Counted from the stretch's first letter, positions 44,904 to 53,120 are shown. The stretch is DNA of 64,000 bases from Escherichia coli (GCF_051903065.1 NZ_CP178438.1), one strand, 5' to 3'. The notes: a model not told the origin generated them from the sequence alone. Numbers and translations are program-made.

Positions 44904-44979
44904 GCCGATATAGCTCAGTTGGTAGAGCAGCGCATTCGTAATGCGAAGGTCGTAGGTTCGACTCCTATTATCGGCACCA
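44904..44979 (+). tRNA. thrW: tRNA-Thr (anticodon CGT)
   Basis: GCCGATATAGCTCAGTTGGTAGAGCAGCGCATTCGTAATGCGAAGGTCGTAGGTTCGACTCCTATTATCGGCACCA; cloverleaf with CGT anticodon. Confidence 0.95.
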
Positions 44980-44993
44980 TTTAAATCAATAAG

Positions 44994-46157
44994 TTACACA
45001 TCATTAGTACCTTCCTTATTTTTTGACTGGGACAAATTTGGGACCGATGGGTTCAGGATCGAGTCTATTTGCCGTGCGTGTTCGGTAAGGTGATTAGGTG
45101 CAAGGTGAGCATATCGACGAACCATTTCGATAGACTCCCAGCCTCCCATTTCCTGTAACACTGACAACGGGACTCCGGCTTGAACTAGCCAACTTGCCCA
45201 GGTGTGTCTCAAGTCGTGAAATCTGAAATCATCAATACCAGCCCGTCTCAGCGCCGCTTTCCAGGCTGTGTTTGCGTCATACCGCATCTTCCTTACTGTT
45301 GGCGCTTTCGTTCCGTCTGGTTTGGTACAGCTTTCCTTGTACACAAATACCCAACGGTGATGATTCCCGATTTGTTTTTTCAAAACGCGACATGCAGTAT
45401 CATTCAGCGCAACGCCAATTGCGCGGTTTGATTTACTCTCTTCCGGGTTTATCCATGCCACCCGGCGCTGCATGTCTATTTGTTGCCATTCAAGGTTGAT
45501 GATGTTCGAGCGTCTTAAGCCTGTTGCCAGTGCAAATTCAACAACAGACTTTAATGGCTCCGGACATTCATCAATCAGCCTTTGTGCTTCATGGGGCTCC
45601 AGCCAGCGGATCCGTTTATTCTTTGGTTGAGGCACTTTAATAATTGGTGCCTTATCCAGCATTTTCCATTCACGCTCTGCGGCTCTTAGTAGGGCCTTTA
45701 TAAATGAAAGATGCGTAGCCTTCGTTGCAACGGACGCTGGTTTTGGCGTGTATTCTGGAACAGGTTTCCCTTTTTTTCTGCATGCTTCTGCCCTGAGTCT
45801 CCAGTTTTCCTCATGACGCCGGTTCGTCATTTTCTGCATTGCTGAATAAATTTTTGATTCAGTAATGTCTCTTAGTTGCATTCCTGCGAAATGTTGAAGC
45901 CAGAATCCGATCCGGCTTTTGTCATCGTCCAGTGATTTTTTATGTGCTTTCTCTTCAAGCCACCTGACACACGCTTCCTCGAACGTTATATCAGGTATTT
46001 CACCAAGTTTGCTGACCCGCCATGCTTCAGCCTTTAGCTTGTCATGGAGTTCTGTCGCCTGCCTTTTGTCCTTTGTTCCAAGAGACTGTTTAAATCTTTT
46101 ACCGTTCGGCAATGTGAAACTGGCGTACCATATTTCACCTCTGCGGAAGAGTGACAT
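44994..46157 (-). CDS. int: Phage tyrosine integrase (P22-type, thrW-specific)
   Basis: 387 aa, [31 protein letters not shown]...; C-terminal catalytic domain ([10 protein letters not shown]...RYAH); directly adjacent to the tRNA 3' end. Confidence 0.93.
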
Positions 46158-48958: not shown

Positions 48959-49426
48959 TTTGCTGCTCCTCATCATATCGACCCTGCAAGGTCGGTTAGT
49001 TTCTCCACAAAACAGAGAAGAACACCTGCGGTGACTGCCGCCCGGATGGATTGGGTTATGAGCCCGTCGTCCGGTGATGCTCTTCTCTGTTTTGTAAAAA
49101 GGACGGTACCAGCCGGAAGCAAGAGTACAAGCTGGTACCGCCAAGACTACACACAGCATAAAGTTGTGGTGCCGGGTGCCTCCCGGTGCCTGGCGAAGGT
49201 TGCACACCAGGCGGGTGGGTATCCACAGAAGGTCGACTGTCAGCCTCAACCTTAACCCGCGTGCGCTGAGCCGCATTCACCACAACGCTAAGGATTCTCT
49301 CTGGTTGAAAATACTTAGCTGTTATGTGCCTGCTTTTAGCCACATCAGGCGAGGTGGACCTAGTTATTCCCCAACAACAAGGATTCGGTTAATCTGGTTA
49401 TCCCCAACAACGCAAAAGGAAAAGAA

Positions 49427-49861
49427 ATGTCCGGTAATATCTATACGCTGTACAAATCCCACTGTGAAAATGTTGGAAAGTATCGGGGCATTGAAATCAG
49501 TGGGGTAGTGTCATCAGTCGAAATAAGCAAAGTTGAATCAAGGGCAACATTACTTACTCTTTTGGACCTTGTCTTACATGAGCACCGGAAGAAATTCGGC
49601 ACTCCCTATAATCAGTTGAATGGGAAAAAGGCTCTGGTTCACCTTATTCTGATGAAGCATCACTGGATGCCAAAACAGATTAATGAGATGAAATTTGATG
49701 AACTTCTTCTTTCAATTCAGGATGAACTCACACTTGATAAAATAAGCGTAACCGCCCAGAAATTTTTAGATTATCGAGACTGGAGATCACAAATTCATCA
49801 CTTTGATGATTTTGACGAAAATGAATGGGATCCTAATTTGTCTGCACAATATCTAAAGTAA
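49427..49861 (+). CDS. Hypothetical protein (AT-rich moron, opposite to the leftward operon)
   Basis: 144-aa ORF with AAAGGAAAAG RBS region; tandem 34-nt-spaced repeats upstream and a terminator downstream. Confidence 0.55.
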   Translation: MSGNIYTLYKSHCENVGKYRGIEISGVVSSVEISKVESRATLLTLLDLVLHEHRKKFGTPYNQLNGKKALVHLILMKHHWMPKQINEMKFDELLLSIQDELTLDKISVTAQKFLDYRDWRSQIHHFDDFDENEWDPNLSAQYLK

Positions 49862-50039
49862 CATCCTGTGATAAAACCGTGATTTCCTGATCCAGTTTTT
49901 TTAAGGAGTCTATTGTTTCCTGTCGATAAGACAGCACTTCACGAAGCTGGTTTATAGCTGCCAGCTTCTTTGTCATCCACTCATAAATTTCCTCATCTGT
50001 GTAGCCAGGCGCGACGATTTTGGGTTCTGTTTTGTGCAT
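49833..50039 (-). CDS. Hypothetical small protein, first gene downstream of the putative pL
   Basis: 68 aa from ATG 50039 (MHKTEPKIVAPGYTDEEIYEW...) with AGGAG 7 nt upstream; 3' end overlaps the convergent 49427 gene by 29 bp. Confidence 0.4.
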   Translation of the reverse strand: MHKTEPKIVAPGYTDEEIYEWMTKKLAAINQLREVLSYRQETIDSLKKLDQEITVLSQDVTLDIVQTN

Positions 50040-50078
50040 TTCACATCTCCTCAAGTTATCAGTTACTTGTTGATGGGG

Positions 50079-50106
50079 ACCAGATTGTTAAAGAGCTAAG
50101 CGTCCT
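50079..50106 (+). terminator. Rho-independent terminator-like hairpin (plus strand)
   Basis: GCGTCC-tgta-GGGCGC followed by TTTTTT. Confidence 0.5.
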
Positions 50107-50188
50107 GTAGGGCGCTTTTTTGTTGCTAACGAATCATCCTGGACTTCATATGCTCCAGGCGGCTACTTCGTGGGCGTCCTGCCTGTTC

Positions 50189-50227
50189 GTTGTTTCGCTT
50201 GGGTACATTATGTATCTCAAAGGTACA
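50189..50227 (-). promoter_or_regulatory. Putative pL/OL: leftward promoter with GTAC-containing operator half-sites
   Basis: Minus-strand TTGACA (50223-50218), 17-nt spacer, ATAATG (50200-50195); GGTACAT motifs at 50191 and 50211 resemble the OR palindromes. Confidence 0.5.
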
Positions 50228-50233
50228 TTGTCA

Positions 50234-50257
50234 AGTATAAAAAAACCTGCCGAAGCA
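50234..50257 (-). terminator. Terminator of the repressor transcript
   Basis: Minus-strand AACCTGC-ttcg-GCAGGTT followed by TTTTTTT, just downstream of the cI stop. Confidence 0.6.
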
Positions 50258-50273
50258 GGTTCATAAACATTGA

Positions 50274-50948
50274 TTAGGCTTTGATTTTGTATCTTCTTGG
50301 TTTTCCTGAGAAAATCACTGTACCAATTATAGAGCAATTACCGTTGATCTTAATGTAAGGCTCAGGCCAGTTTGGGTTTAACGCTTTGAGATAACGCTGT
50401 GTCCCATCTTCTATCAACCTTTTGAAGGTGGTTTCGCCTGTATCGTGCATCAATGCAATAACGTCGTCACCGTGGCAGGCAGGTACTTCAGGATCGACAA
50501 AAATCATGTCTCCCGGGCGGTACTCATCAATCATTGAATCACCTATCACCCGCAAGATATAAGTCATTTCCCCACAGGGTACAGGGCAGGGATACGTTTC
50601 TGCTGTGCTCAAATCAACCTCAGAATATCCAACTTCTTTCCATGCTCCGGCCTGTACCCATGATATGACAGGGACTAATGTGATTTGTTTATTAGTGATT
50701 GAAACATCAGGTTTTTTTGTGATGTTCGTTGTCTGGTGTTCTTGATCGAGCCATCCGACAGGCAGGTCGAAACATTTTTCGATGTGTCGTGCCATGCTGT
50801 CACCGATATTTTTAGTAGCACCATCTCCCATAAACCTGCTGGTCTGGGTTGGCTCGCGATCAATCATAGTGGCAAAGGAAGAATTCCCGCCAACACCATC
50901 TCTCAGTTTTCTGGCGTTAGACCGCCGGATGTCATGGATTGTTTTCAT
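50274..50948 (-). CDS. cI: Phage CI-type repressor (HTH plus S24 LexA-like peptidase domain)
   Basis: 224 aa; C-terminal S24 motifs (GDSM...K); ATG has no upstream RBS, consistent with a leaderless transcript. Confidence 0.85.
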   Translation of the reverse strand: MKTIHDIRRSNARKLRDGVGGNSSFATMIDREPTQTSRFMGDGATKNIGDSMARHIEKCFDLPVGWLDQEHQTTNITKKPDVSITNKQITLVPVISWVQAGAWKEVGYSEVDLSTAETYPCPVPCGEMTYILRVIGDSMIDEYRPGDMIFVDPEVPACHGDDVIALMHDTGETTFKRLIEDGTQRYLKALNPNWPEPYIKINGNCSIIGTVIFSGKPRRYKIKA

Positions 50949-51834: not shown

Positions 51835-52189
51835 ACAGTTTAACAACACACTACCGTCGCTCGCAACTGATTGCGCTTCCTGTACCGGGTGGAAAAGCGA
51901 AGGTGGAGTATTGCTATGCAGTAAATGTACCAGGTGACAGGGAAATTGTAACCCACAGCTTTGCAGAGTGGGCTGTGGGTGATTTCAACCGGCAGAAGGA
52001 GACAGTCCTTTGCGACAAGTTAACCGCTGGTTCAAAGATCACTACGGAGTGCCCGTCAGAGTCATTCGTTGGGAGCCGGAAACACAACGGGTTATCTACC
52101 TCCGTGAAGGCTATGAGCATGAGTGCTTCAGCCCGCTCGAACAGTTTCGTCGTAAATTCAGGGAAATAGAGGTCGGTCATGAGCACTAA
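51831..52189 (+). pseudogene. Phage gene with an apparent single-base frameshift in a T-run
   Basis: Frame 0 ([10 protein letters not shown]...QKETVL) is protein-like up to about 52010; frame 2 from 52010 ([59 protein letters not shown]) is protein-like and ends abutting the next gene. Confidence 0.5.
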
Positions 52190-53120
52190 ATTAACCGGCT
52201 ATGTATGGGATGGTTGCGCTGCGTCAGGCATGAAATTATCCAGCGTGGCAATTATGGCCCGCCTGGCTGATTTCAGTAATGACGAAGGTGTGTGCTGGCC
52301 ATCAATTGAAACCATTGCCCGTCAGATTGGCGCGGGGATGAGTACCGTCAGAACGGCTATCGCACGGCTGGAAGCAGAAGGCTGGTTAACGCGTAAGGCG
52401 CGTCGCCAGGGTAACCGCAATGCGTCGAATGTTTATCAGCTTAACGTTGCGAAGCTTCAGGCAGCGGCATTTTCTCAACTGTCAGATTCTGACCCGTCAA
52501 AATCTGACGCATCAAAATCTGACCCGTCAAAATTTGATGCGTCGAAATCTGGCAAAAAAGCGGGTTTTCACCCGTCAGAATCTGGCGGGGATCCGTCAGT
52601 AAAATCAAAACATGATCCGTCAGATAAAAAAACTTCTCGTCCGGACGCTTCGCAACCGGACACGCAGACGGCTGAACAGGAGTTTTTAACTCGCCATCCT
52701 GATGCGGTTGTATTCAGCCCTAAAAAGCGCCAGTGGGGAACGCAGGATGATTTGACCTGCGCACAGTGGCTCTGGAAAAAAATCATCGCCCTGTACGAGC
52801 TGGCCGCCGAATGTGACGGCGAGGTGGTTCGTCCCAAAGAACCGAACTGGACAGCCTGGGCAAACGAAATTCGCCTGATGTGTGTGCAGGATGGTCGTAC
52901 TCACAAACAAATCTGCGAGATGTACAGCCGCGTCAGCCGCGATCCGTTCTGGTGCCGTAACGTGCTCAGCCCGTCGAAGCTGCGGGAAAAATGGGATGAG
53001 CTTTCCCTGCGCTTATCGCCGTCCATCAGCACATACACAGAAAAACGCGAAGACCCGTATTTCAAATCCAGTTACGACAACGTGGACTACAGCCAGATCC
53101 CGGCAGGATTCAGGGGGTGA
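52179..53120 (+). CDS. Phage replication initiation protein (lambda O-like) with internal iterons
   Basis: 313 aa; N-terminal winged-helix region, repeat-encoded Ser/Asp/Lys-rich linker. Confidence 0.7.
   Translation: MSTKLTGYVWDGCAASGMKLSSVAIMARLADFSNDEGVCWPSIETIARQIGAGMSTVRTAIARLEAEGWLTRKARRQGNRNASNVYQLNVAKLQAAAFSQLSDSDPSKSDASKSDPSKFDASKSGKKAGFHPSESGGDPSVKSKHDPSDKKTSRPDASQPDTQTAEQEFLTRHPDAVVFSPKKRQWGTQDDLTCAQWLWKKIIALYELAAECDGEVVRPKEPNWTAWANEIRLMCVQDGRTHKQICEMYSRVSRDPFWCRNVLSPSKLREKWDELSLRLSPSISTYTEKREDPYFKSSYDNVDYSQIPAGFRG
52485..52625 (+). repeat. Iteron array, candidate phage origin of replication
   Basis: Tandem imperfect repeats (GACCCGTCAAAATCTGAC / GCATCAAAATCTGAC / CCGTCAAAATTTGATGCGTCGAAATCTGGC / CCGTCAGAATCTGGC / TCCGTCAG). 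Confidence 0.65.

Follow-up and report, generated by a model that had tools for sequence, protein, structure and literature searches.

The locus described here lies in a stretch of 64,000 nucleotides from Escherichia coli (GCF_051903065.1, NZ_CP178438.1), which we call the window and whose positions are counted from its first letter. This part of the window is a lambdoid prophage of the SfIV/SfV/e14 (yfd-gene) type, and beside its cI repressor gene two small genes converge: a 144-aa gene on the plus strand (gene A) and a 68-aa gene on the minus strand (gene B), whose 3' ends overlap by 29 bp (49833-49861; Table 1). The original prediction, drawn from the sequence alone, had proposed both open reading frames (ORFs) and their overlap, and all three are real; RefSeq annotates both genes in identical E. 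coli prophages. It had further taken gene A, with repeats upstream and a terminator downstream, for a self-contained unit, a view that has to be given up, as the repeats and the terminator persist in relatives carrying another cassette. We find instead that the two overlapping genes are one of many interchangeable cassettes beside the repressor gene, set within a frame of conserved sequences, and we propose that the first is a lysogeny-phase gene and the second its early-lytic counterpart.

A cargo slot beside the repressor gene

Comparison with relatives revealed a fixed, hypervariable cargo slot between the region of the leftward promoter and operator (pL/OL) and the early-left operon of SfIV/SfV/e14-type prophages. 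The 1.4-kb segment that contains the two genes shares 97.9% identity with Shigella phage SfIV and 99.9% with many E. coli chromosomes. Homology to PhiR29_1, in turn, stops at 49411 and restarts at 50064, and homology to SfV stops at 49357 and restarts at 50128. At least eight alternative, unrelated cassettes were found in the same slot of relatives, including close relatives whose cI/cro and early-left genes are identical to those of the window. Judging from these alignments, cassettes are replaced between conserved flanks, and it is in the flanks that the repeats and the terminator sit. The original prediction is thereby upheld in regarding gene A, which runs on the strand opposite the early-left operon, as accessory cargo beside the immunity region. 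The AT-richness that it noted is also present, the GC content of the cassette (0.36-0.42) lying moderately below that of the left (0.50-0.56) and right (0.43-0.46) sides.

An exact search of IMG/VR for the terminator/boxA segment gathered at least 120 loci. The window's cassette is present in about two thirds of those with enough flank; the remainder carry at least four other cassettes, which always fall between about 49411 and 50064-50083. In a collection of 5426 complete E. coli genomes the flanks were matched in 2895, with at least 80% of the 1.4-kb query matched in only 406, which therefore carry the window's cassette. Reading twelve further loci brought in one type of 170 aa, another with proline-rich peptides and a membrane protein, and the SfV, SfII and e14 (ymfI/ymfJ) types. 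No unoccupied slot appeared among the matches listed for a synthetic empty-junction query against the same 5426 genomes.

All cargo proteins tested belong to PHROGs without known function. They gave no PADLOC match (only noise was obtained for the other cassettes) and no NCBIfam match beyond the ECs1072 name. A 97-aa minus-strand ORF in the L015-type cassette (L numbers designate the loci compared) had no PHROG match and is probably spurious.

A conserved convergent pair of genes

Gene A matched NCBIfam NF033230 over residues 4-144 with a score of 157.8 bits (cut-off 70), and an exhaustive profile search collected 76 cluster representatives, nearly all of about 145-155 aa. An AlphaFold model of A, built on a 47-sequence alignment, is all-alpha (predicted local distance difference test score, pLDDT, 94.7; predicted template modelling score, pTM, 0.89) and had no confident fold match. 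Gene B had no match other than PHROG 1744; its product has the N-terminal motif EPxI..T.EE..WM.KK and a C-terminal region that is coiled-coil-like by eye. Profile searches of both proteins, which the original prediction had envisaged, were thus informative as to family (ECs1072, NF033230 and PHROG 5286 for A; PHROG 1744 for B), but they returned no defence match of the kind it had suggested for such units.

A homologue of B lies beside the A homologue, convergent and 3'-overlapping, in L136, L137/L138, L139/L140, the P2-like L143 and E. albertii L144. The A proteins of these modules are 18-37% identical to that of the window in the four distant cases and 72% identical in L144, the overlaps measure 62-95 bp, and the partner proteins share the N-terminal motif of B (BLASTP E 5e-11 for the pair tested). 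The surroundings recur as well: in L136 and L137 the module again lies beside a repressor gene with helix-turn-helix and S24 domains, in L137 gene B follows a pL-like promoter, and the pair of L143 sits inside the cox early operon. From these sequence comparisons the cargo emerges as a conserved convergent two-gene module, and the biological meaning originally attached to the overlap is borne out by the same arrangement beside such diverged homologues. Other slot cassettes are also convergent pairs, of 81 aa and 98 aa with an 83-bp overlap in SfV and of ymfI and ymfJ with a 63-bp overlap in e14.

Some details of these loci are worth recording. The ymfI/ymfJ pair of E. coli K-12 e14 lies in the same slot (L131 730-1317). 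The SfV pair (L002 2997-3456) is made up of orf33 and an unannotated 81-aa plus-strand ORF (PHROG 3311), GenBank listing orf33 only. In L136 a phage-encoded CsrA homologue (PF02599; L136 2-169) directly adjoins the A homologue.

Repeats and arms that bracket the cassette

Read rightward, the frame of the commonest backbone consists of a constant motif copy, a left arm, the cassette, a complementary right arm, the complement of a boxA, a plus-strand terminator and pL. The two repeat copies that had been described upstream of gene A are indeed there, GTTATTCCCCAACAAC at 49363 and GTTATCCCCAACAAC at 49397-49411, spaced 34 nt from start to start, and the exact 10-mer CCCCAACAAC occurs in the window at these two sites only. 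They are, however, not so much tandem upstream repeats as a single constant copy together with the left arm of a bracketing inverted repeat, and the original inventory overlooked a third, inverted copy at 50066-50086. The distal copy is unchanged in all 23 distinct flank variants, whichever cassette follows. The proximal and the inverted copies together form an inverted repeat of 17-24 bp that brackets the cassette; homology to other cassette types ends at the edge of the left arm (49411), and the right-side breakpoints fall at 50064-50083.

The arms share a constant core, AATCTGG / CCAGATT, whereas their inward extensions vary by cassette type with complementarity kept. On both sides the extension is AATCTGGATGACT in L124, GTAACCCTC in L039 and AATCTTGATACCCCC in L015/L046. 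Predicted arm duplexes have energies of -18 to -32 kcal/mol in all cassette types. Cognate arm pairs beat shuffled ones, permuted pairings being as good in 18 of 5040 permutations for the minus strand and 128 of 5040 for the plus strand. In the predicted folds, minimum free energy and centroid alike, the arm helix closes the leftward transcript (871 nt) as well as the rightward one (741 nt). The order boxA, arm, cassette, arm is found again, with other arm sequences, in L145, a diverged lineage whose A is 56% identical. Two patterns for further L145-type frames in IMG/VR gave, respectively, only a chance match in a giant-virus metagenome-assembled genome and no match. We also looked for inverted repeats flanking the distant A-B modules; these were absent in L136, L137 and L139, and L143 offered one unconvincing 13-nt candidate.

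Further short motifs occur around the arms. A partial inverted copy of the motif, TTGTTGCTAAC, lies at 50112-50130 (plus strand), and a CGAATC there is complementary to GATTCG at 49381-49386; since both the copy and the CGAATC lie outside the terminator, nested outer helices may exist. In the natural variants L005 and L014 the plus strand alone retains the pairing of GATTCG with CGAATC, as G.U. Motifs of the ACAAGGA type, which resemble CsrA sites, are present within conserved sequence ahead of the cassette gene (49375-49383) and at the ribosome-binding site of that gene (49415-49422); in L145 (1440-1460) a motif of this type lies in a hairpin loop.

boxA, terminators and promoters

On the minus strand, the gamma-proteobacterial consensus for boxA, GYTCTTTAANA (bioRxiv 10.1101/091223), is matched perfectly by GCTCTTTAACA at 50096-50086, of which the window has no second exact copy. 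About 105 nt separate the pL-like promoter from this boxA, and the start codon of gene B follows 45 nt after it. L039, whose neighbouring arm is different, and the diverged lineage L145 both keep the boxA. At suhB a boxA at a similar distance leads to Nus-factor-dependent repression, not antitermination (bioRxiv 10.1101/091223), and by analogy the boxA described here could also repress gene B. A second, nutR-like boxA was sought at up to two mismatches, and none is sensibly placed in the window.

The plus-strand terminator that the original prediction placed after gene A exists, as the hairpin AAGCGTCCTGTAGGGCGCTT at 50098-50117 followed by TTTTGTTG, whereas the segment first assigned to it (50079-50106) is mostly boxA complement plus half of the stem. 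It is common to all cassette types of the arm-bearing backbone. We considered the same hairpin as a minus-strand boxB and rejected this, as its G.U pair, like the C-to-T substitution in E. albertii L144, preserves pairing on the plus strand alone. Ahead of the cassette, the position of the weak candidate -10 element reads TATAAT in L126 and TATTAT in L039. The pL postulated beside gene B corresponds to a strong promoter match (Table 1), and the half-sites that overlap it are of the GTAC type, resembling the palindromes between cI and cro.

Gene B also contains a hairpin of 9 bp (49943-49968, plus strand) with a weak T-run, placed 82 nt beyond the gene A stop codon and conserved in E. albertii L144. 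It could act as an earlier, partial terminator for the A transcript.

Table 1. Features of the cassette, its frame and the surrounding prophage (positions in the window)
Feature	Position	Strand	Remarks
Gene A, 144-aa ECs1072-family protein	49427..49861	+	NF033230; PHROG 5286
Gene B, 68-aa protein	49833..50039	-	ATG start; PHROG 1744; first gene downstream of pL-like promoter
Distal repeat copy GTTATTCCCCAACAAC	49363..49378		constant frame part
Candidate -10 GTTAAT (weak)	49388..49393	+	for plus-strand cassette transcription; frame sequence, not cassette
Left arm of inverted repeat AATCTGGTTATCCCCAACAAC	49391..49411		includes second repeat copy, 49397-49411
Right arm of inverted repeat CTTGTTGATGGGGACCAGATT	50066..50086		third, inverted motif copy
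boxA GCTCTTTAACAA	50085..50096	-	on leftward transcript; adjoins right arm
Intrinsic terminator	50098..50123	+	8-bp stem, tetraloop, T-run; conserved frame part
pL-like promoter	50202..50234	-	TTGACA-16-CATAAT at 50234-50207, 11/12, strong match; overlapped by two GGTACATT operator-like half-sites
cI terminator	50243..50262	-	right boundary of region
cI repressor gene, LexA/S24-type	50274-50948	-	
STnc100/PasD-like small RNA	49093-49316	-	43.4 bits, gathering threshold 47, E 8e-07; just downstream of slot on leftward strand
Integrase gene	44994-46157	-	
tRNA gene	44904-44976	+	71.8 bits; anticodon loop ...UCGUAA...; directly adjoins integrase gene

The surrounding prophage

On the integrase side of the slot lies the leftward operon yfdT-S-R-Q-P. 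The tRNA gene beside the integrase gene is presumably tRNA-Thr(CGU)/thrW and probably serves as the attachment site of the prophage. Beyond cI follow cro, a ymfL-like gene and the replication genes. The replication-initiator-like gene (52179-53120) contains tandem short repeats of the TCAAAATCTGAC type (52480-52554, plus strand), which gave a spurious mir-5880 match and resemble iterons or an origin.

The candidate small RNA has its own terminator hairpin, and after the RNA comes a large hairpin whose arms measure 25 nt (49007-49095). RefSeq places a 'frameshifted hypothetical protein' pseudogene over this region (L001 3074-3383), an annotation that is probably an artefact.

Discussion

The arrangement suggests that gene A is a gene of the lysogeny strand, opposed by an early-lytic partner, gene B, inside a plug-and-play slot frame; we give this reading a probability of roughly 0.55. 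In the lysogen, pL would be repressed and A would be transcribed rightward from the weak frame promoter, stopping at the frame terminator. Because the A transcript would run as far as that terminator, its 3' untranslated region would be antisense to all of gene B. Upon induction, transcription from pL would produce B and run antisense through A, transcriptional collision and the formation of RNA duplexes would shut A off, and the B protein may additionally neutralise A. A would thus be a lysogeny-phase accessory function and B its early-lytic off-switch. A growth-phase-dependent microarray signal reported for ECs1072 in an O157 Sakai culture (PMC2241611) provides indirect evidence on expression of A from a prophage. 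Immunity regions have been reported to harbour antiviral genes frequently (PMC12724215), and an exclusion or defence function of A may be guessed at from its position, where cargo usually serves phage exclusion, defence or host modulation.

Several observations weigh against this reading. On the plus strand upstream of gene A we found no sigma-70 match of at least 9/12. Neither A nor B matched defence, toxin or other functional homologues or any Pfam family, and the PADLOC-DB component models gave no match for either up to an E value of 1. In three of the nine contexts examined (L141, L142 and L145) A is present and B is missing, so that B is not obligatory, and the frame is not essential for the slot, because the second backbone (SfV/e14/SfII) has the slot with arms, boxA and terminator all absent. 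As several cassette types have similar arms, true covariation of the arms comes down to about three independent arm replacements only. The wobble pairs, finally, give a mixed picture of which strand the arm helix works on, with about four changes in favour of minus and three in favour of plus, and we dropped them as a means of deciding this.

Of the alternatives, the one that survives best, though we consider it unlikely, is that A and B are ordinary early or regulatory genes, for example a lysis-lysogeny or host-takeover pair replacing the functions of N, cIII or kil, in which case A would be expressed only for a short time in the course of infection. SfIV, SfII and SfV are reported to have no homologue of N, cII or cIII (PMC3851460), so that small genes near pL would have to supply early functions in phages of this type. 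B is the first pL gene both in the window and in L137, the P2-like pair of L143 sits within the cox early operon, and the failure to detect a plus-strand promoter upstream of A would also fit. Against this, the module is dispensable, as close relatives carry unrelated cargo in its place, and in the loci examined A invariably runs against the early operon. The frame has, moreover, a dedicated plus-strand terminator, which evolves as a plus-strand hairpin, and the ECs1072 signal came from an uninduced culture (PMC2241611).

A second alternative, to which we attach a low probability, is that the inverted repeats are the terminal inverted repeats of small mobile cassettes, moved by a recombinase or transposase acting in trans, in which case the covariation of the arms would reflect shared descent of the two ends. 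The arms lie exactly at the breakpoints of cassette homology and vary with the type of cassette, arms of the TGGATATCC type are found again on either side of the A homologue in L145, whose backbone is unrelated, and in the window a short GTTA lies outside both arms. This GTTA flank is, however, not repeated in L039 and L124, and no transposase or recombinase is encoded in or adjoining the slot. The search of complete genomes for the empty junction listed no empty site, and the A-B modules of L136, L137 and L139 lack flanking arms. The innermost 7 nt of both arms and the neighbouring boxA belong to the constant frame and not to the cassette. The most improbable of the alternatives, that the CCCCAACAAC motif is an operator at which a phage or host regulator binds two direct copies and one inverted copy to control the promoters of both convergent genes, could draw on a copy upstream of each gene start among the three, on strict conservation of the motif in many relatives and on a 34-nt spacing of the direct copies near three helical turns, but the motif also precedes unrelated cassette genes, the operators of cI differ from it in sequence (GTAC type), a binder encoded by the cassette is implausible because the cassette proteins are unrelated, and in L124 and L039 the motif is swapped on both sides together with other frame parts retained, which fits complementarity and not a fixed recognition sequence.

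To the reading of A as a lysogeny-phase gene opposed by B we add a more tentative proposal for the frame, which we would put well short of even odds: that boxA and the long-range helix that follows it, with its covarying strands, make up a device like that of the rrn leaders and turn the slot into a swappable socket. Already within the main reading, it is probably the leftward RNA on which the two elements work: in phages reported to have no N, they would carry RNA polymerase through the antisense cassette, most of it untranslated, with no termination by Rho, and the arm helix could also close the cassette into a stem. Under the more tentative proposal the segment might in addition be closed off or excised from the pL transcript.

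The genes themselves are already catalogued as hypotheticals (SfIV orf35/36, the ECs1072 family, PHROGs 5286 and 1744). We found no description in the searchable literature of the framed slot, of the concordant bracket beside a consensus boxA, or of the conservation of the A-B pair across lambdoid and P2-like prophages. With its flanks in about half of complete E. coli genomes, the slot yields a catalogue of candidate lysogeny-phase genes, for exclusion, defence or host modulation, and offers a defined insertion frame for them. The conserved convergent design of A and B suggests a general route to silencing a prophage function upon lytic entry. If the proposals made here are correct, the slot is a standardised socket for freely swapped lysogeny-expressed genes, often with a convergent early-lytic counter-gene, and a boxA and closing helix that work as envisaged would account for the passage of transcription through antisense cargo in lambdoid phages without N.

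Comparison with known systems

The two genes are the same as orf35 and orf36 of SfIV, with 97.9% DNA identity, and gene A belongs to the same family as the NCBIfam entry 'ECs1072 family phage-associated protein'. The SfIV genome paper lists the orf35 and orf36 products as unique proteins without clear function (PMC3851460). The pair does not have the makeup of a type II toxin-antitoxin module: its genes are convergent, not co-directional, and they have no Pfam or fold match.

The nearest kin are the lambdoid morons (in the sense of Juhala and Hendrix) and the genes of immunity regions such as lambda rexAB, P22 sieB, BstA, remAIN and Gifsy GiPD474. Like these, A and B are extra cargo beside a repressor gene, with A on the lysogenic strand, a lower GC content and an intrinsic terminator after it, and they are swapped for unrelated genes in close relatives between conserved flanks. 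Unlike morons, which would bring their own signals, the cargo described here shares its terminator and upstream sequences with other cassettes as parts of a common frame, and it consists of a conserved convergent gene pair. It also differs from known exclusion and defence proteins in having no sequence or fold similarity to any of them.

There is a likeness, too, to excludon-like and antisense-controlled toxin units, in which opposed transcription units give mRNAs that must overlap. Since the mRNAs of A and B must overlap as well, their expression would be mutually exclusive, and the overlap is conserved across homologues that are 18-72% identical. In contrast to such units, both partners here encode conserved soluble proteins, there is no small hydrophobic toxin, and A can occur without B.

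For the leftward transcript, the closest parallels are lambda nutL and the rrn leader, with its boxB-boxA-boxC and 16S processing stem. A long-range helix, the processing stalk, takes part in rRNA processing in rrn operons. The slot differs from nutL in that N is reported absent from SfIV, SfII and SfV and in that no conserved boxB hairpin follows boxA; it differs from a boxB-boxA layout in that what precedes boxA is a hairpin behaving as a plus-strand terminator. With both nutL and the rrn leader it shares a perfect boxA placed a short distance after an early promoter. With the rrn leader it shares, in the predicted folds, a boxA directly before the 5' strand of a helix whose 3' strand lies more than 650 nt downstream, so that largely untranslated RNA is enclosed. 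In its sequence the boxA meets the consensus of an rrn-type Nus-factor leader, from which recruitment of NusB/NusE/SuhB, protection from Rho and cleavage by RNase III are putative extensions. Should they apply, the slot would be a rare case of rRNA-style leader logic outside the rRNA operons.

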